From assembly GCA_963781705.1 (NCBI GenBank), contig CAWAGP010000010.1:101028-165027 (forward strand): DNA of 64,000 nucleotides. The letters run 5' to 3'. Both the position numbers and the translations under genes were made by a program. The notes below the pieces were generated by a model. That model ran no database searches and was not told the origin of the DNA. It saw only the letters and a list, made by a program, of their open reading frames with translations. Shown piece by piece: positions 20,693 through 37,909 of the stretch. Every line of letters begins with the position of its first letter. The stretch's first letter is position 1. The stretch comes from an uncultured Chloroflexia bacterium (GTDB lineage Bacteria > Chloroflexota > Limnocylindria > Limnocylindrales > CSP1-4).

Positions 20693-20768
20693 TGGAGCGG
20701 GAGACGGGGATCGAACCCGCGACAACCGGCTTGGAAGGCCAGCGCTCTGCCAACTGAGCTACTCCCGC
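20693..20768 (-). tRNA. tRNA-Gly (anticodon UCC)
   Basis: The reverse complement is GCGGGAGTAGCTCAGTTGGCAGAGCGCTGGCCTTCCAAGCCGGTTGTCGCGGGTTCGATCCCGTCTCCCGCTCCA. It has a 7-bp acceptor stem, D-arm, anticodon loop CTTCCAA, T-arm GGTTCGATCC and a CCA end, 76 nt. Confidence 0.85.
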
Positions 20769-23374: not shown

Positions 23375-24508
23375 ATGCTGCACAACTCGTTCCGCCTGTT
23401 CACCATCCGCGGCATCGAGGTCGGCATTCACTACAGCTGGTTATTCATCTTCGGGCTGCTGACCTGGTCGCTCGGCTCGTACGTCTTCCCACAGGACTAC
23501 CTTGCCAATGGGTTGCGGCCGCTGCCGGCAGCGGAGTACTGGCTGCTTGGCGCGCTCACGACCATCCTCATGTTCGTCTCGGTGCTCATCCATGAGCTGG
23601 CGCATTCCTTCGTCGCGCGCGCCCGCGGCCTGGACGCGCGGTCGATCACGCTGTTCATCTTCGGCGGCGTGTCGAACCTGTCGGGCGAGGCCAAGGAGGC
23701 CTCGACCGAGTTCCTGATCGCCATCGTCGGCCCGCTGACCAGCTTCGCACTGGCCGGCCTCAGCTTCGGCATCGCGTCCGTCATCGATGAGCCGCGCATC
23801 GACCTGGTCGCCAGTTACCTGCTGTACATCAACCTGGTGCTGGGCCTGTTCAACCTCGTGCCCGGCTTTCCGCTCGACGGCGGCCGGGTGCTGCGCGCGG
23901 TGCTGTGGACGGCCCTCGGCAATGTCCGCCGGGCGACCGAGTGGGCTGGCAACGTGGGCAAGCTGGTGGCGTGGGGCATGTTCGCGCTGGGCCTGCTGTT
24001 CCTGTTCCAGGGCGACGTGATCAGTGGCATCTGGCTGGCGGCGATCGCCTGGTTCTTGCACAACGCTGCGTCGGACAGCGTTCAGCACATGGTCTTCGAG
24101 ACGCGCCTGCGCCGCGTCCGCGCGGCGGACATCGTCGAGCACGACAGCACCACCGCGCCGCCGGGCATCTCGGTCGCGGAGCTGATCGAGCAGTACGTGC
24201 TGCCCACGAACCGCCGCGCGGTGGCCGTCGCCGACAACGGCCGGCTGGTCGGCATCGTGACGGTCGGCGACATCATGCACGTGCCGGTCGAGCAGCGCAC
24301 CCGGGTGGCTGTGGCGGAGATCATGAGCGGTCACGAGGGGCTGTTCACAATCCGCGCCGACACGCGTGCTCAGGATGCCGTCGAACTCCTCGCTGAGCAC
24401 GATCTCGAGCAGGTGCCGGTAATGGATGGCGACCGTTTCATCGGTCTGCTGACGCGCGGCGACGTGATGCGCCAGCTGCAGCTGCGCGAGGCGCTCAACG
24501 TCGGATAG
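23375..24508 (+). CDS. Site-2 protease (M50) family metalloprotease with C-terminal CBS pair
   Basis: HELAHSF (HExxH) in TM helix, ...NLVPGFPLDGGRVL (LDG motif), C-terminal CBS motifs (AVAVADNGRLVGIVTVGDIM ... VPVMDGDRFIGLLTRGDVM). The start is at ATG 23375, because the track ORF upstream is antisense of rpiB. Confidence 0.75.
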   Translation: MLHNSFRLFTIRGIEVGIHYSWLFIFGLLTWSLGSYVFPQDYLANGLRPLPAAEYWLLGALTTILMFVSVLIHELAHSFVARARGLDARSITLFIFGGVSNLSGEAKEASTEFLIAIVGPLTSFALAGLSFGIASVIDEPRIDLVASYLLYINLVLGLFNLVPGFPLDGGRVLRAVLWTALGNVRRATEWAGNVGKLVAWGMFALGLLFLFQGDVISGIWLAAIAWFLHNAASDSVQHMVFETRLRRVRAADIVEHDSTTAPPGISVAELIEQYVLPTNRRAVAVADNGRLVGIVTVGDIMHVPVEQRTRVAVAEIMSGHEGLFTIRADTRAQDAVELLAEHDLEQVPVMDGDRFIGLLTRGDVMRQLQLREALNVG

Positions 24509-26448: not shown

Positions 26449-26739
26449 ATGACGTACGTGATCGCCGAGCCGTGTGTGGACGTCATCGATCAATCGTGCG
26501 TGGCGGTGTGCCCGGTCGACTGCATCCACTTCGACCAGGGTGTCGATCGGATGCTGTACATCGATCCCGACGAGTGCATCGACTGCGGCGCGTGCGAGCC
26601 GGAGTGCCCGGTCAACGCCATCTTCCCCGAAGATGCGCTACCGGCCGAGGCGGCCCCGTACACGGAGATCAACGCGCAGTGGTTCCGCGACAAGGATGGG
26701 GCACGCGCCGCCCTTGACGCGCTGAAGCCGCCCGCCTGA
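26449..26739 (+). CDS. fdxA: 7Fe ferredoxin ([3Fe-4S][4Fe-4S], FdxA type)
   Basis: MTYVIAEPCVDVIDQSCVAVCPVDCI...DPDECIDCGACEPECPVNAIF is the classic 7Fe ferredoxin cysteine pattern. AAGGAG upstream. Confidence 0.8.
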   Translation: MTYVIAEPCVDVIDQSCVAVCPVDCIHFDQGVDRMLYIDPDECIDCGACEPECPVNAIFPEDALPAEAAPYTEINAQWFRDKDGARAALDALKPPA

Positions 26740-26756: not shown

Positions 26757-28007
26757 TCAGGCGCGTGCAGTCACTGCAGCAATGATCCGGCGCAGGTTGG
26801 GCCGCGTGCCGTAGAGCAGCACCGTCGCGCGGAAGATGCGCCCCGCGGCGGCGATGGCGAAGACGACGAAGACCACCTGCACGAGCAGCGAAACGCCGAC
26901 CATGATCCACGGCGGCGAGCCGTTCGAGAGTACCTCGAGCAGTGCCGCCGGAGCGGTCAGTGGGATGAGCGCCAGCACCCACACGATGGGCGACGTGGGG
27001 TCGCCCAGGAATACCGGCGTGAGCACCAGTGGGATGACCGCGAAGAAGCCGAAGAAGCTCGAGTACTGCTGTGCCTCGCGCGCGCCGGCCGACAGCGCTC
27101 CCACCGCGGCGAAGATCGCGCCGTAGGCGAGATAGCCAAGGCAGAACACGATCACCGCCAGGGCGATCGTGATCGGCGGCAGCGCGACATGGACCGCCAG
27201 CTGCTGGTCGATGATCGGCAGCGCCAGCAGCGCGGTGCCCAGCCAGATGGCCACCTGGGTCAACCCGGCGACACCCAGGCCGATCGTCTTGCCGGCCATC
27301 AGCGGCAGGGCGGGGATCGAACTGAGCAGGATCTCGACGACGCGGTTCTCCTTCTCCTCGGTGACCGACTGGAGCAGGTAGCCACTGGTCATGAAGATGC
27401 TCAGCACAAAGATCAGCGTGAACACGTAGGGCACGATGAAGTCCGCCGCGACGGATGCATCGGATACCGCCTCGCCGCTGGTCGTGACCGAGGCGAACGT
27501 AATCGGCGTGAGCAGCTCAGCCAGCGTGCTGTCGGGCAGGCCGGCGTTGCGCAGCAGAGATGTGCGCAGCAGCAGCTGCACCTCGGCCTGCTCGGCCTGC
27601 TGGCGCGACAGCGCGTCGAGGGCGCGGCCGGTATTGGACTGCGACGACTCGACGAGCAGTACCTGTGGCTGCGTCGGCCAGGTGTTGGGCACCAGGAAGT
27701 AGTCCGCCACCGCGGTCGCAGCCAGGCGGGCATCGGCCTCGGCCCTGTCGACGAGGACCACGTTGGGCGTGATCGTGGCGTCGGTCTGCAGAGCCACCGC
27801 GGATTGGTTGACGACCAGAAGCGGGCCCTCGACCGAGCCGCTGGTCGCACTGTCGATCGACACCGCGCTCGACAGGATGAAGATGAACGCCATGGACGCC
27901 GGCAGCAGCAGCGTTGCCAGGAGGAAGCCACGCCGGCGAACCGTGCGCAGATAGTCGCGCCGGGCGACGAGCAGGACCAGCCTCAGGAAGTGGCCGCGCT
28001 CGTTCAT
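26757..28007 (-). CDS. ABC-2 type transporter permease
   Basis: 416 aa, an N-terminal TM, a large extracytoplasmic loop, then 5 C-terminal TM helices (ABC-2/NatB-like topology). It is translationally coupled to the upstream ATPase. Confidence 0.7.
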   Translation of the reverse strand: MNERGHFLRLVLLVARRDYLRTVRRRGFLLATLLLPASMAFIFILSSAVSIDSATSGSVEGPLLVVNQSAVALQTDATITPNVVLVDRAEADARLAATAVADYFLVPNTWPTQPQVLLVESSQSNTGRALDALSRQQAEQAEVQLLLRTSLLRNAGLPDSTLAELLTPITFASVTTSGEAVSDASVAADFIVPYVFTLIFVLSIFMTSGYLLQSVTEEKENRVVEILLSSIPALPLMAGKTIGLGVAGLTQVAIWLGTALLALPIIDQQLAVHVALPPITIALAVIVFCLGYLAYGAIFAAVGALSAGAREAQQYSSFFGFFAVIPLVLTPVFLGDPTSPIVWVLALIPLTAPAALLEVLSNGSPPWIMVGVSLLVQVVFVVFAIAAAGRIFRATVLLYGTRPNLRRIIAAVTARA

Positions 28008-28981
28008 CCGACGCTCTCCGCACGCGGGTCGCCGGCCACTGCGCGGATGAAGATCTCGGCGAGGTTGGGGGCCTCGACCGCGAAGCGCTCCACCTGCGCC
28101 GGCGTGTCGCCGAGTTCACGGAACAGGTCCTGCGCGCTTGCGCCGTCGCGCAACAGGTAGCGCACCGAGCCGTCGTAGGCGGTCGCGTGGCTGGCGCTCT
28201 TGAGCGCCGTGCTGTCGGCCGGTAGCTGCCGGCCGACGACTTCGACCGCGCCGTCGCTGAATGCGCGCCGGATCTCGGCCACGGTTCCGTACAGCAGTCG
28301 TCGACCGTTGTCGATGAGCAGGATCCGGTCGCACAGGACCTGTGCGTCTTCCATGTCGTGGGTGCTCATGACCACTGCCGCGCCGCGTTCGCGCTGCGCC
28401 ATGAGCAGGCTCTTGAGCATCGTCGCGTTGACTGGATCCAGGCCCTGGAAGGGCTCGTCGACGATCAGCAGGTCGGGTTCGTTGATGATCGTGGCGATCA
28501 GCTGCGCCTTCTGGTGCATGCCGCGCGACAACTCGCCCGCCTTCTTGGTCAACGAGTCGCCCAGCCCGACTTCGACCAGTAGGTCGTGGGCGCGCGTGCG
28601 CGCCTCGTGCGCGGCCAGGCCGCGCAACGCGCCGAAATAGGTCAGCGTGTCGATGATCGGCACGTCGCGGTAGAGTCCGCGGTCTTCGGGCAGGTATCCC
28701 GTCCGCGACTGATGCGCGATGCCCGGTCGACCGCCGAACACACTTATCCGGCCGCGGTCGGGGCGGATGATGTCGAGGATCATGCGCATGGTCGTCGTCT
28801 TGCCCGCCCCGTTCGGCCCCAGGAAGCCGAGCATCTCACCCGGGCGAACGTCGAACGACAGATCTGACACCACGTCGACCGAACCGAAGCGCTTCCAGAC
28901 GCCGTCGACGACGACCGGCAGCGCGCCGGCTTCGTTGAGGCGGCCGGCGAGCGTGCTGTTGGGCACCGCTGCTGTGGTCAC
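28004..28981 (-). CDS. ABC transporter ATP-binding protein
   Basis: Walker A GPNGAGKTT, signature LSRGMHQKAQL, Walker B LLIVDEPFQGLD, H-loop STHDM. Confidence 0.8.
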   Translation of the reverse strand: MTTAAVPNSTLAGRLNEAGALPVVVDGVWKRFGSVDVVSDLSFDVRPGEMLGFLGPNGAGKTTTMRMILDIIRPDRGRISVFGGRPGIAHQSRTGYLPEDRGLYRDVPIIDTLTYFGALRGLAAHEARTRAHDLLVEVGLGDSLTKKAGELSRGMHQKAQLIATIINEPDLLIVDEPFQGLDPVNATMLKSLLMAQRERGAAVVMSTHDMEDAQVLCDRILLIDNGRRLLYGTVAEIRRAFSDGAVEVVGRQLPADSTALKSASHATAYDGSVRYLLRDGASAQDLFRELGDTPAQVERFAVEAPNLAEIFIRAVAGDPRAESVG

Positions 28982-29044: not shown

Positions 29045-29992
29045 ATGCGCATCGTCTCTCTCGTGCCATCGGCGACCGAGATCGTCTTCGCGCTGGGCAT
29101 CGGCGAAGACCTCGTCGGCCGCTCGGATGAGTGCGATTTCCCGCCGGAGGCGGCTGATGTGCCGGTGGTCACGCGTGCGCTGGTGACCGGCCGGCACAGG
29201 GGCAGCCGCGCTATCGATACTCACGTCGGAGCGGCACTGGGCGGCGGCGAATCGCTGTATGCCCTCGATGTCGACGCGCTGGCGGCGGCCGACGCCGACC
29301 TGGTCATCACCCAGCGGCTGTGCAGCGTGTGCGCCGTCAGCCACGGTCAGGTCGTGCACGCGCTGGAGCAGCTCGGCTCGTCGGCGCAGGTCGTCAGCCT
29401 CGACCCGGAAAGCGTCGAGGGCGTGCTCAACGCCATCTCGACAGTGGGCGCGATGGCCGAGGTCGAGGACGAGGCGATCGGCCTGATCGAGGTCCTGCGC
29501 GAACGCCTCGCGAACATCGAGAACCGCGTGCTCGAGCGCCGGCTGGCCGGTGTCGGCGCGCGCCGGGTGGTGTGTCTCGAGTGGCTCGACCCGCCGTTCG
29601 CGGCCGGTCACTGGGTGCCCGAACAGGTGCGCCGGGCGGGCGGCTGGGAGGTACTCGGCACAGCCGGCGAGCCGTCACTGCGCACCAGCTGGGAGCGCGT
29701 CCGCGAGGTCGACCCCGACCAGCTGATGCTCATGCCATGTGGCTTCGATGCTTGGCGAACGGCGGTCGAGTGGGGCCGCGTCGAGCGGCCCGACTGGCTC
29801 TCCGAGCTGCGCGCAGTCGCGCAGGGCGAGGTCTATGCGCTCGACGGCTCGGCATATTTCAGCCGCCCCGGTCCGCGGTTGATCGACGGCATCGCGCTGC
29901 TGGCCGAGCTGTTCGACCCCGGCAATTTCCTCGACGAGGCACCGGCCGGCGCGTGGCTGCCGCTGGGCGCGGTCGGCGAACGTGCCCGCTGA
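29045..29992 (+). CDS. Cobalamin-binding protein, BtuF-like periplasmic-binding-protein fold, no signal peptide
   Basis: MRIVSLVPSATEIVFALGIGEDLVGRSDECDFP... is a typical class-III (helical backbone) B12/siderophore binding protein N-terminus. It begins directly with the beta-strand, with no signal peptide or lipobox. Confidence 0.6.
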   Translation: MRIVSLVPSATEIVFALGIGEDLVGRSDECDFPPEAADVPVVTRALVTGRHRGSRAIDTHVGAALGGGESLYALDVDALAAADADLVITQRLCSVCAVSHGQVVHALEQLGSSAQVVSLDPESVEGVLNAISTVGAMAEVEDEAIGLIEVLRERLANIENRVLERRLAGVGARRVVCLEWLDPPFAAGHWVPEQVRRAGGWEVLGTAGEPSLRTSWERVREVDPDQLMLMPCGFDAWRTAVEWGRVERPDWLSELRAVAQGEVYALDGSAYFSRPGPRLIDGIALLAELFDPGNFLDEAPAGAWLPLGAVGERAR

Positions 29993-30833
29993 CAGCCCTT
30001 TCGCCGCCCGGTTCAACTGCCTGTGGTGTGGTCGGCCGCACGAGGTGCGTTCGGCCGACGATCTAGAGGGCTACGCGCGGCTGTGCCCCGACTGCATCGG
30101 GCGCGCCCAGGACAACGAGTTCCTGCGCTTCCGCCTGCGCGAGGGTCTGCGCCGGCGTTCCGCGGCGTCGGCGGGCGCACAGTCCGACGACGAAACGCTG
30201 AAGACCTACTACGCGGCGCGTGCGCCGGAGTACGACGAGATCTACTCGGGCATCGGCTGGCCGCCTGTCGAGCGGGCGGTGTTCCTGGCCGACCTCGACG
30301 CAGCCACGCTATGGCTCGACCGATTGCCGTGGCGCGGTGAGATCGTCGAGCTTGCAGCGGGTACCGGCTGGTGGTCGCCGTTGCTGGCTCAGAAGGGCGA
30401 GCTGTGGCTGTACGACGCGGTCGGGGAGCCGCTTGAACGCGCCCGCGACCGATTGCTGGCGCATGGCCTGCGCGCGCACATTCACCTGCGCGATGCCTGG
30501 GCGGAGCCGGACCGCCCGGTCGATGGTCTGTTCTGCGGCGGGTGGCTGAGCCACGTTCGACGCGAGCGGCTGGCCGACTTCCTGGGCATCTGCCGCCGCT
30601 GGCTGAAGCCGGGCGGGATGTTCGCTTTCATCGACGAGGCGCCCGGTTGGGGCTACACGCCCACGGTCGACGATCGCCAGCCGCGCCGCCTCAACGATGG
30701 CCGCGAGTTCACGATCGTCAAGGTCTATTACGAGCCGTCCGAGCTCGAGACAGCCCTGCGGGCGGCGGGTTTTGCCCAGGCCGAGGTGGGCACGACATCG
30801 CGCTTCTTCCAGCTGGGTCGCTCGACGGCATGA
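29982..30833 (+). CDS. Class I SAM-dependent methyltransferase with N-terminal C4 zinc-ribbon (paralogue 1)
   Basis: CLWCGRPHE...CPDCIG zinc ribbon, SAM motif I EIVELAAGTGWWS, and post-I acidic LWLYDAV. The GTG start overlaps the stop of the cobalamin-binding gene. Confidence 0.65.
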   Translation: MPADSPFAARFNCLWCGRPHEVRSADDLEGYARLCPDCIGRAQDNEFLRFRLREGLRRRSAASAGAQSDDETLKTYYAARAPEYDEIYSGIGWPPVERAVFLADLDAATLWLDRLPWRGEIVELAAGTGWWSPLLAQKGELWLYDAVGEPLERARDRLLAHGLRAHIHLRDAWAEPDRPVDGLFCGGWLSHVRRERLADFLGICRRWLKPGGMFAFIDEAPGWGYTPTVDDRQPRRLNDGREFTIVKVYYEPSELETALRAAGFAQAEVGTTSRFFQLGRSTA

Positions 30834-31507
30834 ACGACCAACTGCGCGAGTACTACGCGGCGCGGGCCGGCGAGTACGACGACTGGTACCTGCGCCGCGG
30901 CCGCTATGAGCACGGCCCGGACGCTGACGCCGCGTGGGCGGCGGAGCTGGAGCATGCGCGCCAATGGCTGGACAGCCGGCCCCTGCAAGGGGAGATCGTG
31001 GAGCTCGCGGCGGGCACCGGCTGGTGGTCGCGGCTGCTCGCCCGGAAGGGACAGCTGTGGCTTTACGACGCCGTGCCCGAGCCGCTCGAGCGAGCGCGTC
31101 AGCGTTTGCTCGAGCACGGGCTGGCCGCCCACATTCACGTGCGCGACGCGTGGGCCGTGCCCGATCGCCGCGTCGATGCGCTGTTCTGCGGCTTCTGGCT
31201 GAGCCATGTGCCGCGCGACCGGCTGGCGACGTTCCTGGGTGTCTGCCACCGCTGGCTCAAGCCCGACAGTGTGTTTGTCTTCATCGACTCACGCCGCGAC
31301 CCGGATTCGAGCGCGTTCGACCATCCCGCGCCGGCCGATGACGTGTCGCTGCGCCGCCTCGACGACGGCCGCGAGTTCGTCATCCCCAAGATCTACTACC
31401 AACCGGGGGATCTCGAGACGGCCCTGCGCGAGGCTGGCTTCGCGACTGCCCACGTCACGACCACGCCGCGCTTCTTCGTGCTGGGCGAGGCGAGCACGGG
31501 TGCCTGA
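30830..31507 (+). CDS. Class I SAM-dependent methyltransferase (paralogue 2, no zinc ribbon)
   Basis: About 50% identical to the preceding MTase over the catalytic domain (EIVELAAGTGWWSRLLARKGQLWLYDAVPEPLERARQRLLEHGLAAHIHVRDAW...). The ATGA overlap with paralogue 1 is consistent with tandem duplication. Confidence 0.65.
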   Translation: MNDQLREYYAARAGEYDDWYLRRGRYEHGPDADAAWAAELEHARQWLDSRPLQGEIVELAAGTGWWSRLLARKGQLWLYDAVPEPLERARQRLLEHGLAAHIHVRDAWAVPDRRVDALFCGFWLSHVPRDRLATFLGVCHRWLKPDSVFVFIDSRRDPDSSAFDHPAPADDVSLRRLDDGREFVIPKIYYQPGDLETALREAGFATAHVTTTPRFFVLGEASTGA

Positions 31508-31529: not shown

Positions 31530-32375
31530 ATGTCGCTCAGCGGGGCCACCATCGCCACGATCGGCTCGGGTGTGATGGCCGAGGCGATGATTGCTGGTTT
31601 GCTGCGCGGTCATCAGGTCGCCGCGGAGCAGATCATTGCCAGTCACCCGCGCGCCGACCGGCGCGCGGAACTTGTGGCCACCCATGGCATCCGCACCGTC
31701 GCGGAAAACGTCGCTGCTGTCGGACCGGCCGACGTCGTGGTGCTGGCCATCAAGCCGCAGATGCTCGCCCGCGTTGGACGCGACATAGCGCCGGCCATGT
31801 CGGACGGCAAGCTGGTCATCAGCATCATCGCCGGCGCGACGACTCGGGCACTCAGCCAAGCTCTCGGTCACCGGCAGGTCGTGCGCAGCATGCCCAACAC
31901 CCCCGCCCAACTGGGCCGTGGCGTCACCGTCTGGTACGCGACGCCGGAGGTCAGCGAGGCGCAGCGCGCCCAGGCGCGCGCGCTGCTGGGCAGCCTGGGC
32001 ACCGAGCTCGAGGTCGATGACGAGAAGCTGGTGGCCATGGCCACGGCCGTCAGTGGCACCGGTCCGACCTACGTCTTCCTGTTCATGGAAGCGCTCATCG
32101 ATGCCGCCGTGCACCTGGGCTTTGCGCGCCACATCGCCCACGATCTGGTGATCGAGACACTTGAGGGCAGCACCCTGTTCGCCAAGTCGAGCGGCATGCA
32201 CCCGGCCCAGCTGCGCAACATGGTCACCTCGCCGGGCGGCACGAGCGCCGCAGCACTGCACGAGCTCGAGTCGGGTCGGCTGCGGACTGTCGTGTCGGAA
32301 GCGGTCTGGGCGGCATATCGGCGCACGGAGGAGCTGGGCCGGGCGCTCGAGACCGAGACGGCGCCTGATCGATGA
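31530..32375 (+). CDS. proC: Pyrroline-5-carboxylate reductase
   Basis: IATIGSGVMAEAMIAGLL (NADP-binding GxGxxA/G), ...SMPNTPAQLGRGVT..., C-terminal dimerisation domain TSPGGTSAAAL, 281 aa. Confidence 0.8.
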   Translation: MSLSGATIATIGSGVMAEAMIAGLLRGHQVAAEQIIASHPRADRRAELVATHGIRTVAENVAAVGPADVVVLAIKPQMLARVGRDIAPAMSDGKLVISIIAGATTRALSQALGHRQVVRSMPNTPAQLGRGVTVWYATPEVSEAQRAQARALLGSLGTELEVDDEKLVAMATAVSGTGPTYVFLFMEALIDAAVHLGFARHIAHDLVIETLEGSTLFAKSSGMHPAQLRNMVTSPGGTSAAALHELESGRLRTVVSEAVWAAYRRTEELGRALETETAPDR

Positions 32376-33142
32376 GTGCCAGACGCGCGCGACTGTTGAC
32401 GGTGCCGCTGCTCGCTGTGTCACTGCTGGCGGGCTGCGCGGCACAGCCGGTCGCTGAGACGACCCAGCTGCCGCTGGTGACGATCGGCCTGCCATCGCCG
32501 GGCGCCTCATCTCTGCCGACGCCCGGCGTCACGCCGTCGCCGGGCCCGTCATCGACCGCGTCACCGTCGGCCACCAACACATCCAGCAGCCCGCCGACTC
32601 CGAGCACCATCCCGCTGTCCACGCCACCACCCTCGCCGACCGTGCCACCTCCCACGCCGCTGCCCTCCGGCGCGCCCACGCAGGGCTGCGTCAACGGCTG
32701 GGCGAGTCCGGCACCGGGCACTCCGCTGTACCAGGAGGCACTGTCGATTCTGGCCGCGCAGATGGGCCAACAGGGCCCCTGGAACGTCGCCGAGATGCGC
32801 TACTTCACCGGCCCTGACGTTCCGTGGATCCAGCCTGGCTACGACGTGGTCGAGCGCTGGTACGTCAAGGCTTCGCGGGCCGACGACGCCGGCTTCCAGG
32901 GCCGCTGGCTGATCGAGAAGCGCACCGACCAGATCGAGGGCATCTCGGCCGTCGCGCCGTGGTACACGGCCGGCTACCGCTCGCCCGACTGGACCGGTTT
33001 CGAAGGCGAGGGGCCGCCGGTCACCTACCTCGGCCTGCCGGGCCAGTGGGCCGGCGTGCCGTACGACTTCGTTACCGGCGCCGGCGACGGCGGGCAGCCC
33101 GGCCTTCCAACGCAGGTCAGCGACTGTCTCAAGGGGACGTGA
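32372..33142 (+). CDS. Hypothetical lipoprotein with a Pro/Ser/Thr-rich linker
   Basis: Signal peptide plus lipobox LLAGC, then a 90-aa P/S/T-rich low-complexity linker and a globular C-terminal domain. The ATGA overlap with the proC stop. Confidence 0.5.
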   Translation: MSARRARLLTVPLLAVSLLAGCAAQPVAETTQLPLVTIGLPSPGASSLPTPGVTPSPGPSSTASPSATNTSSSPPTPSTIPLSTPPPSPTVPPPTPLPSGAPTQGCVNGWASPAPGTPLYQEALSILAAQMGQQGPWNVAEMRYFTGPDVPWIQPGYDVVERWYVKASRADDAGFQGRWLIEKRTDQIEGISAVAPWYTAGYRSPDWTGFEGEGPPVTYLGLPGQWAGVPYDFVTGAGDGGQPGLPTQVSDCLKGT

Positions 33143-33144
33143 GC

Positions 33145-34440
33145 ATGCGCGTCGAGGTCCTGGCAACGCTCGACTGCCCCCATCTCGAGCGCGCCGAGCA
33201 GATCGTCCGCATCGCCCTGCGCGACGATGGTCGCGAGCCGGTCATCCAGCGCGTGTACGTGAGCGATCTCGACACGGCCGCCGGCCTCGGCTTCCACGGC
33301 TCGCCGACGGTGCGCATCGACGGCCTTGACGTAGTGCCGCCGCCGGCCGACCTGCCGATCAACCTCGGTTGCCGGCTCTACCCGCAGCCGGGCGGCGGTG
33401 TGGACGGCGTCGTGCCCGCCGAGACGATCAGCGCGGAGGTGGAGCGTCGGCACGAGGTTGAGATGCACGCGCGCGCGAACCGCACACACGTGCGCGATGC
33501 GCCCGGCCACCTGTCACGCCAGATGTTCCTGTGGGCGTCGCATCGCGGGTCGCTGGCGCGCGTCGCGACGGCCATCCCGATCACCCGCCGAATGGTCCGC
33601 CGCTTCGTCGCCGGCGACACGCTCGACGACGCGCTCGGCGCGCTGGAGCGGCTGCGCGAGCAGGGCATGCACTGGACGGTGGACGTGCTCGGCGAATCGG
33701 TCGATTCGCGGGAAATGGCAAACGCCGCGGCCGACCGCTACATCGCCACGCTCAACGCCCTGGGCGAGCGCGGCCTCGAAGCGAACGTGTCGCTCAAGCT
33801 CACCCAGATGGGGCTCGACATCGATGCCGGCTTCTGCCGCGACAACGTCGGCCGGGTCGTGGAGCGCGCCAGGCAGCTGGGCGCCTTCGTGCGCGTTGAC
33901 ATGGAAGATCACACCAAGACCGCCGCGACGCTGGCCGTCGCCCGGGCGCTGCACGCTGAATATCACGACGTCGGCGTGGTCATCCAGTCCTACCTGCGCC
34001 GCTCAGCCGACGACATCGAGCAGCTGATCGGCGAGCAGGTCCGCGTGCGGCTGTGCAAGGGCGCCTACGACGAGCCTGGCGCCGTCGCGTTCCCGGCCAA
34101 GGAGGAGGTCGACGAGAGCTACCGCGTGCTCATGGAGCGGCTGTTGCTGGCCGGACGCTACCCGGCCATCGCCACCCACGATGAGCGCCTGATCGACCAC
34201 GCCGTCGAATTCGCGACCAAGCATGGCATCGGCGCCGACCGTTTCGAGTTCCAGATGCTGTACGGCATCCGCCGTGACCTGCACGAGCGGCTCGTGGCGC
34301 AGGGTTTCACCGTGCGCGTGTACGTGCCCTACGGCACGCAGTGGTACCCGTACTACATGCGACGCATGGCCGAACGCCCGGCCAACGTCATCTTCCTGCT
34401 GATGAGCGTGTTGCGCGAAGGCCGCGGCGCGCGCAATTAG
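33145..34440 (+). CDS. Proline dehydrogenase (PRODH) with N-terminal degenerate thioredoxin-like (Thioredoxin_3-type) domain
   Basis: The C-terminal 300 aa show the PRODH TIM-barrel (…VDMEDH…VRLCKGAY…ATHDERLI…). The N-terminal MRVEVLATLDCPHL...GFHGSPTVRIDG matches the small redox-active disulfide-protein fold, with CxxC degenerated to CPHL. RBS AAGGGGA. Confidence 0.7.
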   Translation: MRVEVLATLDCPHLERAEQIVRIALRDDGREPVIQRVYVSDLDTAAGLGFHGSPTVRIDGLDVVPPPADLPINLGCRLYPQPGGGVDGVVPAETISAEVERRHEVEMHARANRTHVRDAPGHLSRQMFLWASHRGSLARVATAIPITRRMVRRFVAGDTLDDALGALERLREQGMHWTVDVLGESVDSREMANAAADRYIATLNALGERGLEANVSLKLTQMGLDIDAGFCRDNVGRVVERARQLGAFVRVDMEDHTKTAATLAVARALHAEYHDVGVVIQSYLRRSADDIEQLIGEQVRVRLCKGAYDEPGAVAFPAKEEVDESYRVLMERLLLAGRYPAIATHDERLIDHAVEFATKHGIGADRFEFQMLYGIRRDLHERLVAQGFTVRVYVPYGTQWYPYYMRRMAERPANVIFLLMSVLREGRGARN

Positions 34441-35105
34441 GTGGCGTCCGCGGCGGCCAGGCGATCCTCGATCTCCCACGCGTGATCGAGCGCGTGCCAT
34501 GCCGAGCGGCGGATGGCAAAGCGGGCTGGCCAGCGCTGGCCGCCGCGCGGCCCGCGATCGGGTAGCTCACCGCGCGCTCGTCGCTCGACCGCGTCGCTGA
34601 ATTCGGCCCGGATCTGGTCCCAGCCGGCGGACGGGTGAGAGCTGCCGCCGACGGCCGACGAGTAGGCGGCGTCCGCGTCGGCCACGTGGGCGCGCATCTT
34701 GTCCAGGGTCCGCCCCCCGCCGCGCGGCCCGGCGGGGGCGAGCAGGCGGCCCTCGGCCGCGTCCGCCGCGCGAGCGAAGGCCGCCCAGGCCGCTTCGAGC
34801 ATGGTCAGCTGCCTGCGCAGTTCGGCGGGCGATATGGGCCGCAGGTCGAAGTCGGCGATCCGCGCCGGCGCCCCGATGTCCGTCGTCGCGTTGCCTTCGA
34901 GTCGCGCCACGACGATGAGCTGCCCGACACTGATGGGCGGCTCGAGGTCGAGCGCCGACCCGCCCATGCTGGTGCGGTAGCGCGGGCCGTACTCGAGCAG
35001 TGCCAGCAGTGCTTCCTCGGCCGACTTGCGTGCCCGCGCCCAGCCCGGCCATTCGACCGCAGCCGCCACCGTGCGCTTGGCGCCGGCCTCCAGGTAGACG
35101 TCCAT
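34437..35105 (-). CDS. Hypothetical protein (possible DinB_2-like helical bundle; HxxxH near C-terminus)
   Basis: 222 aa, ends ...SAWHALDHAWEIEDRL. No confident family assignment. It overlaps the PRODH stop convergently and lies immediately downstream of the DinB-family gene. Confidence 0.4.
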   Translation of the reverse strand: MDVYLEAGAKRTVAAAVEWPGWARARKSAEEALLALLEYGPRYRTSMGGSALDLEPPISVGQLIVVARLEGNATTDIGAPARIADFDLRPISPAELRRQLTMLEAAWAAFARAADAAEGRLLAPAGPRGGGRTLDKMRAHVADADAAYSSAVGGSSHPSAGWDQIRAEFSDAVERRARGELPDRGPRGGQRWPARFAIRRSAWHALDHAWEIEDRLAAADAT

Positions 35106-35121
35106 CGGGCTCCGCGGCCCC

Positions 35122-35619
35122 CTACGCCAGTTCGTCCAGTTGGTCTGCGTGCTCCTCGAGGTGGTGGATCACGAACTCCCCGACGATGGCCTCGACGTCC
35201 ATCTCGCCGCGGCGCGGGTGGAGGCCGACGGCGTGCCGCTGGGCCGGGGTCAGCCCGCCCAGGAAATGGCGCAGCTCTTCGATCGAACTCAGTACGGCGC
35301 GGAGCTGGTCCGCCACCGACGCGCGCCGGTTGGCCTCGATTGTCTCGATCCGGGCGCTGTCTGCCTTGGTTCGGCCGAAGGCCACCGGCACGCCGTGATA
35401 GCCGGCGATGACGGCTTCGGCCTGGTGCTGCCAGTAGGGCACGAACTCCGCGATGTGCGCCCAGATCTGGCCGGCGTCCCAACGTTCGTCCGCGCCCGGA
35501 TCCGGCTCGCTCAGGCCGTGCGGGAAGGGCCGCTGCGCGAGTTGGTCGAGGCGCCCCTCGAGCACGCCGAGTTGCGCCACGAAGTCGACCCGGCCGTCTG
35601 TCTGGTCCGCGGCTGGCAT
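35122..35619 (-). CDS. DinB/DinB_2 superfamily protein (mycothiol-dependent maleylpyruvate-isomerase N-terminal-domain-like)
   Basis: GQIWAHIAEFVPYW ... FVIHHLEEHADQL (H...HxxxH metal-binding pattern of DinB_2), 165 aa. It is immediately downstream of hmgA. Confidence 0.55.
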   Translation of the reverse strand: MPAADQTDGRVDFVAQLGVLEGRLDQLAQRPFPHGLSEPDPGADERWDAGQIWAHIAEFVPYWQHQAEAVIAGYHGVPVAFGRTKADSARIETIEANRRASVADQLRAVLSSIEELRHFLGGLTPAQRHAVGLHPRRGEMDVEAIVGEFVIHHLEEHADQLDELA

Positions 35620-35630
35620 GCCGGTCGGCC

Positions 35631-36854
35631 TCAGTCGGGGAAGGCTTCCGGGCCGCGCTCGGCGAGCGCCTGCGCCTGCTCGTCGGGATTGTCCGGCGGC
35701 AGCCAGCTGTACGGGTAGGACTCGTCCTCGAGCCGCGCGGCCTCACGCGTGAGGTTGAGCGGATGGAAGGTGTCGACCATCACCGCCAGCTCTTCGGTGC
35801 CCTCCTTGCCGATCGACGCCTCGACCGTGCCCGGATGCGGACCGTGCGGGATGCCGCCCGGGTGGAGGGTGAAGGAGCTGGTCTCGACGCCGCGCCGGCT
35901 CATGAAGTTGCCCGCGACGTAGTAGATGACCTCGTCGCTGTTGATGTTCGAATGGTTGTACGGCGCCGGGATGGCCAGCGGGTGGTAGTCGAATTTGCGC
36001 GGCACGAACGAGCACACCACGTAGTTGCGGCCGGCAAAAGTCTGGTGGACGGGCGGCGGCTGGTGAACCCGTCCGGTGATCGGCTCGAAGTCGCCGATGT
36101 TGAAGATGAACGGGTACAGGTAGCCGTCCCAGCCGACGACGTCGAAGGGGTGGTGCCTGAAGTGGTAGGCGGTGATGCGCCCACGGACGCGCACCCAGAT
36201 GACGAATGCGCCCGTGTCGGTACGCGCCGCGGTCTCATCGGGCACGCGGATGTCGCGCTGCGAGAACGGGGAATGCTCGAGCAGTTGTCCCCACTCGTTG
36301 CGGTAGCGCTGGGGTGGGACTATCTCCGACGGCGACTCGACGTACATGATCCGGTGGGCGCTGCCAGGTTTCTGGGCGAGGCGCCAGGTGGTGCCGATGG
36401 GAATCACGATGTAGTCACCGGGGGCGTAGCTCATCGAGCCGAAGACGCTCTCGAACGTGCCCTCGCCCTCGTGCACGAAGAGCATCTCGTCGGCCTCGCC
36501 GTTGCGATAGAAGGTGTCGTCAGGCAGGCTCTCGGTCGGTCGCGCGACGCCGATCAGCACGTCGCTGTTGAAGAACAGCGGCGTTCGCCCGTCGACGATG
36601 TTGCCACCGGGTGCGATGCCGCCGGTCTTGACCAGCCGGTGCCGATGCAGCCCGTCATCGATCGCCTCATGGTGGATGTCGTGCACGCGCTCGATCTGGT
36701 GTGTCTGCGTCGGCGGCGTCACGTGGTACAGCAGCGACGATCGGCCGGTGAAGCCCTCCATGCCGAACAGCTCCTCGGCATAGAGCTTGCCGTCGGGAGC
36801 CCGATGCTGGGTATGGCGCTTGTGCGGGATGTTGCCCCGGCTCATGTAGAACAC
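35631..36854 (-). CDS. hmgA: Homogentisate 1,2-dioxygenase
   Basis: Highly conserved HmgA blocks (…GFTGRSSLLYH…, …YHPLAIPAPYNHSN…, …FTLHPGGIPHGPHPG…). The start is either GTG 36854 or ATG 36845. Confidence 0.85.
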   Translation of the reverse strand: MFYMSRGNIPHKRHTQHRAPDGKLYAEELFGMEGFTGRSSLLYHVTPPTQTHQIERVHDIHHEAIDDGLHRHRLVKTGGIAPGGNIVDGRTPLFFNSDVLIGVARPTESLPDDTFYRNGEADEMLFVHEGEGTFESVFGSMSYAPGDYIVIPIGTTWRLAQKPGSAHRIMYVESPSEIVPPQRYRNEWGQLLEHSPFSQRDIRVPDETAARTDTGAFVIWVRVRGRITAYHFRHHPFDVVGWDGYLYPFIFNIGDFEPITGRVHQPPPVHQTFAGRNYVVCSFVPRKFDYHPLAIPAPYNHSNINSDEVIYYVAGNFMSRRGVETSSFTLHPGGIPHGPHPGTVEASIGKEGTEELAVMVDTFHPLNLTREAARLEDESYPYSWLPPDNPDEQAQALAERGPEAFPD

Positions 36855-36892
36855 GATCGAAGTCTAGGTCAGTGGCACACAGGCCGAGCCGG

Positions 36893-37909
36893 TCACGAGC
36901 GCGTCGGGTGGTCGACCACGGGAGCGCTCAGCTCGCACAGCCGCTCGACGGCGATGGTCACGGTGTCGCCCGGCTGTAGGTAGCGGCCGAAGCCCGACTC
37001 GTCCTTCATCTCGAGCAGGCAGCCGGTGCCGACCGTGCCCGAGCCGAGCACGTCGCCCGGGACGAGGTGGACGTCGGCCGACGCGCGGGCGACCATCGCG
37101 CCGAAGCTGTGGCCAATGTCGCGCCAGTTGCCGCGCGAGATCTCCATGCCGTTGATCGTCGCCGTTGCCACCAGGTCGTAGCCCTTGGCAGCGCGTTTGT
37201 CGGCCAGCTCGTCGGGCGTGACCAGCCACGGCCCGAGCGTCGTGGCGAAGTCCTTGCCCTTGGCCGGTCCCAGGCGAACCGTCGTCTCGTCGCGCTGCAG
37301 GTCGCGCGCCGACCAATCGTTCATGAGCATGTAGCCGCCGATGGCCTGCTCACCATGGTCCGGCGACAGGTCGTGCGCGGGCGTATCGATCAGCGCCGCG
37401 ATCTCGAGCTCGTAGTCGAGCTCGAGCGAGCCGCGCGGCGCCCAGACCGGCGCGCCCGGGCCGCGGATCTCGGATACGTTGCTGAAGTAGAAGATCGGCA
37501 GCCGGTGCCAGGCCTCGGGGATGGGCATGTCACGCCGCTTCCACATGGTGCCCACGTGGCGCTCGAAGGCATAGAAGTCGCGCAGGCTGGCCGGGCGCAG
37601 GATCGGTGGCCCGAAGTCAAGATCGGCCGCGTCGCTGACGGCGTCGTCTTCTTCGTCGGCGGGCTCGAAGCGATCGAGGATGTCGGCCAGTGCTTCGACG
37701 CGAACGCCGCGCGCCAGGATCTCGTCCAAAGTGCTCAGCGGCTGCCGGAACAGGATGCTGTTGTGAGCCAGCCGCTCGTCGCGCTGCACGGCCCGGCGTC
37801 GGCCCACTTCCAGGTCCAGCCAGCGCCCGCCGGCCGGATCGAGCGCCGCATGGAGCCGGTACGGAGCACCGGCCGGCGCGTGCCGTTCGCGGGCGTGGGC
37901 AATCTTCAT
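36893..37909 (-). CDS. Fumarylacetoacetate hydrolase (FAH) family protein, probable fumarylacetoacetase
   Basis: FAH fold C-terminal domain (…GYMLMNDWSARDLQ…GPAKGKDFATT…GDVLGSGTVG…). It sits in an operon position directly upstream of hmgA. Confidence 0.7.
   Translation of the reverse strand: MKIAHARERHAPAGAPYRLHAALDPAGGRWLDLEVGRRRAVQRDERLAHNSILFRQPLSTLDEILARGVRVEALADILDRFEPADEEDDAVSDAADLDFGPPILRPASLRDFYAFERHVGTMWKRRDMPIPEAWHRLPIFYFSNVSEIRGPGAPVWAPRGSLELDYELEIAALIDTPAHDLSPDHGEQAIGGYMLMNDWSARDLQRDETTVRLGPAKGKDFATTLGPWLVTPDELADKRAAKGYDLVATATINGMEISRGNWRDIGHSFGAMVARASADVHLVPGDVLGSGTVGTGCLLEMKDESGFGRYLQPGDTVTIAVERLCELSAPVVDHPTRS

Follow-up and report, generated by a model that had tools for sequence, protein, structure and literature searches.

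A three-gene unit at positions 29045 to 31507 was analysed in a stretch of 64 000 nucleotides from an uncultured Chloroflexia bacterium (class Limnocylindria; assembly GCA_963781705.1, contig CAWAGP010000010.1, positions 101 028 to 165 027). This whole 64 kb stretch is called the window. The first gene encodes a protein resembling the cobalamin-binding protein BtuF (the binder) and the other two encode methyltransferases dependent on S-adenosylmethionine (SAM). The binder is likely a cytoplasmic B12-related protein. It belongs to a leaderless BtuF-like family with four conserved cysteines in its predicted cleft loops, a feature that is the most distinctive of the family and was missing from the original prediction, which had been made from the sequence alone. 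A corrinoid-fed methyl-transfer system, as proposed there, is not supported, and the interest of the locus rests on the four-cysteine family rather than on the three-gene arrangement. A full-text literature search on cytoplasmic BtuF-like proteins, or on Peripla_BP_2 proteins with cysteines, returned no relevant description, and the family appears to be undescribed in the searchable literature.

Location, fold and cysteine site of the binder

Gene 1 (29045..29992, + strand; ATG at 29045, TGA at 29990-29992) encodes 315 aa that match Pfam Peripla_BP_2 (5e-15). Position 29045 is the earliest start codon after an in-frame stop and residue 2 of the protein already falls on the first strand of mature BtuF in the alignment, so that no signal peptide or lipobox is possible and the binder is predicted to be cytoplasmic. 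The original prediction had reached the same view for the window copy, and it extends to the whole family. An exhaustive search of 1.84 billion representatives delimited 933 clusters (E < 1e-30), in nearly all of which the match begins within the first 16 residues. No signal peptide turned up in the orthologues, where the original prediction had seen a weak point: in about 148 of 150 family representatives, the first BtuF-like strand is preceded by fewer than 20 residues. In the signal-bearing BtuF genes that share loci with the family, by contrast, the Pfam match does not begin until residue 29-45.

The nearest relatives carry the names Candidatus Limnocylindrales or uncultured Chloroflexia. 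Other members were found in Acidobacteriota, Actinomycetota, Nitrospirota, Thermodesulfobacteriota, Binatia, Dormibacteria, Methylomirabilia, Ignavibacteria, Bacteroidota, Verrucomicrobiota, other Chloroflexota and two archaea. Their database names are automatic only ('cobalamin-binding protein' or 'iron complex transport system substrate-binding protein'). As labels of periplasmic cobalamin-binding or iron complex transport proteins these names are wrong, and 'BtuF' counts made for comparative B12 genomics may lump the cytoplasmic family together with transport proteins.

An AlphaFold2 model of the binder (pLDDT 94.2) was compared with the PDB using Foldseek. The best matches were the heme binders PhuT, RhuT and ShuT together with BtuF (E 5e-15 to 1e-12, TM 0.6-0.7, about 20% identity), with E-values of 5e-15 for the heme binders and about 5e-13 for BtuF. 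According to the model, the binder thus has the two-lobe fold of BtuF and the heme binders (cluster A, or class III, binding proteins). No NCBIfam model reached its cut-off with the binder; the BtuF model NF002894 scored 30.5 bits for a cut-off of 234 and matched only residues 2-41. A role as the BtuF component of an importer was rejected, since export, partner genes and model score all fail.

Conservation of the cysteine site was counted over 145 diverse representatives (35-55% identity). Cys30 (codon at 29132..29134, + strand) belongs to an ECD motif in the loop after strand 23-26 of the N lobe and is present in 136 of the 145. The pair Cys93-x-x-Cys96 (29321..29332, + strand) lies in the TQxLCxVCA loop after strand 86-89 of the same lobe, each cysteine again being kept in 136/145. 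Cys232 (29738..29740, + strand) is part of MPCGF, in the loop after strand 226-229 of the C-terminal lobe, and was found in 133/145. All four cysteines occur together in 129 representatives and His189 is kept in 120. The window binder has the complete set (Cys30, Cys93, Cys96, Cys232, His189, and the EW and GHWxPE motifs) and no leader.

In cluster A binding proteins, the loops after these strands line the ligand cleft. Family members without two or more of the cysteines are also without His189 and Trp180; because the residues are lost together, they suggest one functional site. Compared with periplasmic BtuF and with 4m7o, the CxxC loop is an insertion of 4-6 residues at the site of the BtuF Trp loop (IIAWP in Vibrio BtuF), and periplasmic relatives have no cysteine at any of the four positions. 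The C-lobe motif YFSRPGPR was aligned with NRPTPR of periplasmic Vibrio BtuF. One family member (P0283, 448 aa) carries a C-terminal fusion to a DCC1-like thiol-disulfide oxidoreductase (PF04134, 2e-12), which hints at a redox-active cysteine site.

B12 genes around the binder family

Gene neighbourhoods were examined in 80 loci fetched from species-representative genomes, 54 of them from other lineages, and in a second set of 80 metagenome loci. The genome loci were found with the narrower family alignment, as the wider one had no sufficiently conserved stretch. B12-specific neighbours were present in 7 of the 53 informative distant genome loci and in 19 of the 61 informative metagenome loci. 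The linked members are spread over 12 of 28 sequence clusters, and the window binder is equally similar to linked (median 42%) and unlinked (43%) members. As members of the family recur in B12 loci outside this lineage, a corrinoid-related cytoplasmic role is likely.

In L087 and L090, the four-cysteine gene is preceded at 80-135 nt by a riboswitch, which controls it together with the CobQ gene that follows (NF001989, 606-620 bits). A second riboswitch comes next and controls genes for a TonB receptor, a signal-bearing BtuF, CobB, BtuC and BtuD. These double-riboswitch loci extend over 7665-14245 in L087 and 7562-16888 in L090. The presence of amidating enzymes in a seemingly salvage-only locus suggests uptake of de-amidated corrinoids. 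In L032 and L085, the gene is placed in the order riboswitch, TonB receptor, beta-propeller protein, four-cysteine gene, (DUF71), signal-bearing BtuF, BtuD, BtuC. This is an Ignavibacteriales-type B12 uptake operon under a cobalamin riboswitch (L032 1505-10088; L085 4187-11661). Its beta-propeller protein of 501 aa has no family assignment, and we take it to be possibly BtuG-like.

Elsewhere, the four-cysteine gene stands just before riboswitch-cobU-cobB-btuF-receptor (L037 and L040), is convergent with an operon of that type (L049) or has CobB directly upstream (L122). In a Chloroflexia genome (L027 6939-7787), the gene of a 282-aa ECF-transporter S component overlaps the four-cysteine stop codon; this S component has no NCBIfam assignment and could be corrinoid-specific. 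DUF71 adjoins the four-cysteine gene in 15 loci. The bacterial branch of DUF71 was predicted by comparative genomics to act in B12 salvage and its genes lie beside 'BtuCDF' (PMC3541065).

A universal operon partner of the family was sought and dropped, as no partner is common to most members. A Pfam census of 101 flanking genes of the 54 distant loci contained no methyltransferase and no family represented in more than 4 genes. The tightly coupled neighbours in distant genomes are heterogeneous (a glycosyltransferase, a tRNA-editing domain, FxsA, phytoene synthase, an E2 acyltransferase and an M50 protease). On one metagenome contig (L130 2303-2592, - strand), an Rfam match to 5_ureB_sRNA was recorded (82 bits). 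It is probably an antisense match to a urease gene, unrelated to the binder family.

Methyltransferases and flanks of the unit

Gene 2 (29982..30833, + strand; GTG at 29982, TGA at 30831-30833) encodes methyltransferase 1 (283 aa) and gene 3 (30830..31507, + strand; ATG at 30830, TGA at 31505-31507) encodes methyltransferase 2 (225 aa). In the sequence, the GTG start of gene 2 and the stop of the binder gene overlap by 11 nt (29982..29992, + strand), and genes 2 and 3 share an ATGA start/stop overlap (30830..30833, + strand). The three co-directional overlapping genes of the original prediction are borne out by these open reading frames. So is its domain reading by the profile searches it had called for: beside Peripla_BP_2 for gene 1, genes 2 and 3 gave SAM methyltransferase domains (Pfam Methyltransf_25/11/23).

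Methyltransferase 1 begins with a zinc-ribbon segment (30018..30095, + strand; 115/119 relatives), whose C13, C16, C35 and C38 are at least 90% conserved, although only weak Pfam and NCBIfam zinc-finger matches were obtained. The N-terminal CxxC...CxxC ribbon had been correctly recognized. In the model (pLDDT 90), the ribbon (residues 10-39) is followed by a 44-residue helix (46-89) and then by the catalytic domain; a ribbon carried on such a helix could dock the enzyme to a partner. Methyltransferase 2 has the same catalytic domain without the ribbon and is, as had been said, a ribbon-less paralogue. The two are 61% identical over 221 aa, and not about 50% as first estimated. Indels define subtypes among the relatives: methyltransferase 1 falls into the '6-3' subtype, whereas methyltransferase 2 has the '9-8' insert. 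In a neighbour-joining tree, methyltransferase 2 is nested among ribbon-bearing single enzymes of other genomes. Its identity to these is 73-75%, against about 61% to methyltransferase 1, so it is not a recent tandem duplicate: indel signatures and tree both contradict that earlier proposal. From the sequences, methyltransferase 2 would be either an old paralogue or an acquired copy that lost the ribbon. The two-enzyme arrangement is also present in L082 and L163.

DhpI was the top structural match to the methyltransferases and gave a profile E-value of 1.3e-24. By this similarity, both enzymes are assigned to the DhpI-like class I SAM-dependent O-methyltransferases. RlmA gave no match anywhere in the family, profile or structure searches, and an RlmA-type rRNA methyltransferase was rejected, there being no similarity beyond the generic class I core. 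CpaM (NF043040) was rejected as well: the scores were 16.0 and 26.3 bits for a cut-off of 180, and only the generic SAM-binding core was covered. Because the enzymes are DhpI-like, do not match RlmA and fall far below the CpaM cut-off, they are classed as SAM-dependent small-molecule enzymes, closest to an enzyme methylating an acidic oxygen and with no predicted need for a corrinoid. Between the small-molecule and RNA methyltransferases raised by the original prediction, this points to the former. No phosphonate biosynthesis genes were seen among the annotated neighbours.

The unit is followed by proC, for pyrroline-5-carboxylate reductase (31530..32375, + strand), which starts 22 nt past gene 3, is syntenic in the class and is probably on one transcript with the three genes. 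Upstream, a ferredoxin gene (26449..26739, + strand; 96 aa) is kept ahead of the binder gene across the class according to the synteny map, with Fer4 Pfam matches for this neighbour in L001, L082 and L163-L166. Outside the unit, an ABC-2 permease and ATPase (26757..28981, - strand) are divergent from the binder gene and separated from it by a 63-nt gap; the ATPase, which has a DrrA C-terminal domain, is the sole one near the binder gene. The exporter was rightly described as divergent; it is a common neighbour in relatives, standing in this position in the window and in L002, L006, L082 and L163-L166, and not in L001 and others. As the original prediction had it, no B12 permease or ATPase adjoins the unit; the 64 kb window contains none, and no BtuC homologue, cobalamin riboswitch or B12 gene was found in it. 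The G+C content is about 70% across the three-gene region. A promoter/terminator scan gave nothing above shuffled expectation.

A few further features of the window were recorded. Its only Rfam match is a single tRNA gene (20696-20768, - strand). A proline dehydrogenase gene (33139-34440, + strand) encodes about 430 aa with an N-terminal extension of about 110 residues, including a cysteine-rich stretch (MRVEVLATLDCPHLER...); proline dehydrogenases of equal length are encoded in L001, L082 and L164. Further on (34437-37909, - strand), two DinB-family genes come before a homogentisate 1,2-dioxygenase gene and one of the fumarylacetoacetate hydrolase family; the names derive from the sequences and from Pfam matches in relatives. 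The genes make up a tyrosine/homogentisate degradation cluster, which relatives share in synteny. A site-2 protease is encoded at about 23400-24508, some 5 kb upstream of the binder gene, as in other Limnocylindria; in Rubrobacter, the gene of such a protease, with CBS domains, immediately precedes the four-cysteine gene (L075 4586-6628; L081 3996-6111). This proximity could be a relic of old synteny or hint weakly at a functional link.

Explanations and comparison with known systems

As the best explanation as a whole, and with moderate confidence, it is proposed that the family handles corrinoids inside the cell and that the Limnocylindria copy is co-transcribed and translationally coupled with one or, as in the window, two DhpI-like methyltransferases. 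Several observations weigh against this proposal. About 80% of the loci outside the class have no B12 neighbour, and a riboswitch or B12 gene was found in none of the 26 informative Limnocylindria loci and nowhere in the window. The corrinoid link drawn in the original prediction is upheld by gene context and riboswitches in other phyla. The cysteines could instead serve to bind a structural zinc or an iron-sulfur cluster that has nothing to do with corrinoids. On the side of the methyltransferases, none was found beside the binder gene in the 54 distant genome loci or in the 80 metagenome loci, one locus of the class (L025) has kept the binder and lost the methyltransferase, and the adjacency seen in the class may be inherited gene order.

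A methyltransferase directly downstream of the binder gene was found only in Limnocylindria-type loci (L001-L026, L046), and the pair is absent from the loci of other lineages. A plausible if somewhat doubtful alternative is that gene order was simply inherited. The binder would be a B12-salvage accessory or another cytoplasmic cysteine-site protein and the methyltransferases would be small-molecule O-methyltransferases serving something unrelated (for example detoxification or a lineage-specific metabolite) from a transcript shared with the binder and proC. The block of cupredoxin, ferredoxin, binder, methyltransferase and proC is indeed syntenic across the class, and because the whole block is syntenic, adjacency within the class is weak evidence when taken alone. 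The 134 loci from other lineages without a methyltransferase, L025, the methyltransferase remnants that are all that is left in L009 and L015, and a copy number varying from one to two point the same way. This account is less at ease with the tight or overlapping binder-methyltransferase junctions of L001, L016, L018, L019, L046, L082 and L163-L165, as overlaps or very short gaps have been retained at 52-80% protein identity. Nor does it readily explain that the pair persists in L165 although the downstream genes differ, or that the binder is upstream of the methyltransferase in 4/4 methyltransferase-centred loci. On present evidence, the pairing is a class-specific feature of uncertain meaning, and a functional cooperation of the binder with the methyltransferases is considered doubtful.

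The cysteine site raises a different question, namely whether the four-cysteine protein has anything to do with corrinoids. It might be a metal or iron-sulfur protein (a metallochaperone, a redox sensor or a cluster carrier), its presence in B12 loci reflecting cobalt or redox needs, or chance. We regard this as unlikely, in spite of a Cys4 + His site typical of zinc or iron-sulfur binding, the fusion to a DCC1-like oxidoreductase in one member and the conserved ferredoxin gene upstream in Limnocylindria. The Pfam clan of the binder fold also holds chelatases and nitrogenase-type proteins. However, the B12 neighbours are corrinoid transport and side-chain enzymes rather than cobalt transporters or chelatases, members under riboswitch control come from several sequence clusters, and YFSRPGPR aligns with a motif of a periplasmic BtuF. 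Much less probable still is the model of the original prediction, in which a corrinoid protein shuttles methyl groups to or from two Rossmann-fold methyltransferases. In its favour are the B12 link of the binder family by gene context and the weak NCBIfam matches to CpaM (16 and 26 bits), but these matches are far below 180 bits and concern generic SAM-binding motifs only. Moreover, the binder has neither a B12-binding Rossmann domain (PF02310) nor a cap in Pfam, the enzymes are structurally close to DhpI, for which SAM is the direct methyl donor, and the B12-linked members sit with uptake and amidation genes and not with methyl-transfer enzymes. With a pairing restricted to one class, the idea of a corrinoid protein feeding two methyltransferases is not supported. 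That the unit simply pairs a transport component with a zinc-binding rRNA methyltransferase of the RlmA type can practically be dismissed. RlmA does have an N-terminal zinc-binding motif before its class I domain, but the searches described above gave no match to it, and the binder lacks a signal peptide and, in the window, any transporter partner.

Under the proposal of intracellular corrinoid handling, the binder would take an imported, incomplete, damaged or de-amidated corrinoid into the cleft between its lobes. The thiolates, or a metal or iron-sulfur centre held by them, may act on the cobalt or ligate it, and the binder would present the corrinoid to the side-chain-modifying salvage enzymes CobQ, CobB, DUF71 and CobU. 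Receipt and side-chain repair of corrinoids are proposed because the partners are importers and ATP-dependent enzymes of corrin carboxylates (CobQ, CobB and DUF71). In Limnocylindria, the coupled DhpI-like O-methyltransferase may act on whatever the binder holds, an acidic group being what would fit the enzyme family. The upstream ferredoxin is suggested as a possible supplier of electrons. The boldest form of the proposal is judged improbable. In it, the family would be a missing bacterial and archaeal corrinoid-handling factor, a cytoplasmic receptor ligating or reducing the cobalt of incoming corrinoids through its thiolates or an iron-sulfur centre and passing them on to the corrin-carboxylate enzymes CobQ, CobB and DUF71. 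In Limnocylindria, the methyltransferase would take the place of these enzymes and methyl-esterify an acidic group on the bound corrinoid or on a related tetrapyrrole. Such a methyl-esterification would be a corrinoid modification not described before.

The handling of corrinoids between import and use is poorly known in bacteria. Intracellular B12 chaperones are well described in humans and, to our knowledge, bacterial equivalents are few. The family provides a concrete candidate for such an intracellular step, with several hundred sequence clusters in many phyla and some archaea, a predicted location inside the cell, a conserved cysteine site and, in several lineages, B12 riboswitch control beside corrin-amidating enzymes.

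Among known systems, the binder is closest to BtuF and to PhuT, ShuT and RhuT, with which it shares the predicted two-lobe cluster A fold and its long connecting helix. Similarity to BtuF is also seen in sequence, at the N-terminal strand and in the RPxPR motif of the C lobe, and members of the family lie in B12 uptake loci. Unlike BtuF, the family has no signal peptide, shows only about 20% identity and possesses four cysteines and a CxxC insertion that are absent from periplasmic binders. In B12 loci, the four-cysteine protein accompanies a normal signal-bearing BtuF (with BtuCD in L032 and L085) and does not replace it. The DUF71-B12/CobQ/CobB salvage loci resemble those of the family in that the four-cysteine gene recurrently adjoins these genes, whereas none of them is near the window copy. 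A leaderless cysteine-bearing BtuF-like protein is not singled out in the description of these loci (PMC3541065).

The systems MtaABC, MetH and CFeSP, together with CpaM, have in common with the unit only the idea of a B12-related protein encoded beside a methyltransferase. In contrast to MtaABC and MetH, the binder has no Rossmann B12-binding domain and the window enzymes are not of the TIM-barrel MtaA/MtaB/MtrH type. BtuM and CblC-type B12 processing are precedents for thiolate or thiol chemistry of cysteine on the cobalt of incoming cobalamin. Their folds are unrelated to that of the binder, and they offer a functional analogy only to the proposed cysteine site. For the methyltransferases, the nearest known enzyme is DhpI, the phosphonate O-methyltransferase of dehydrophos biosynthesis (PDB 3OU2). 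The likeness covers the whole catalytic domain and includes the N-terminal YYxxRAxEYD helix and the R..L.DGR.F.IVKV strand region. The window enzymes differ from DhpI in their surroundings, no phosphonate biosynthesis genes being seen among the annotated neighbours, and in the N-terminal zinc ribbon and 44-residue helix that copy 1 carries and copy 2 has lost. They are new members of the DhpI-like group, to which a zinc ribbon has been added.

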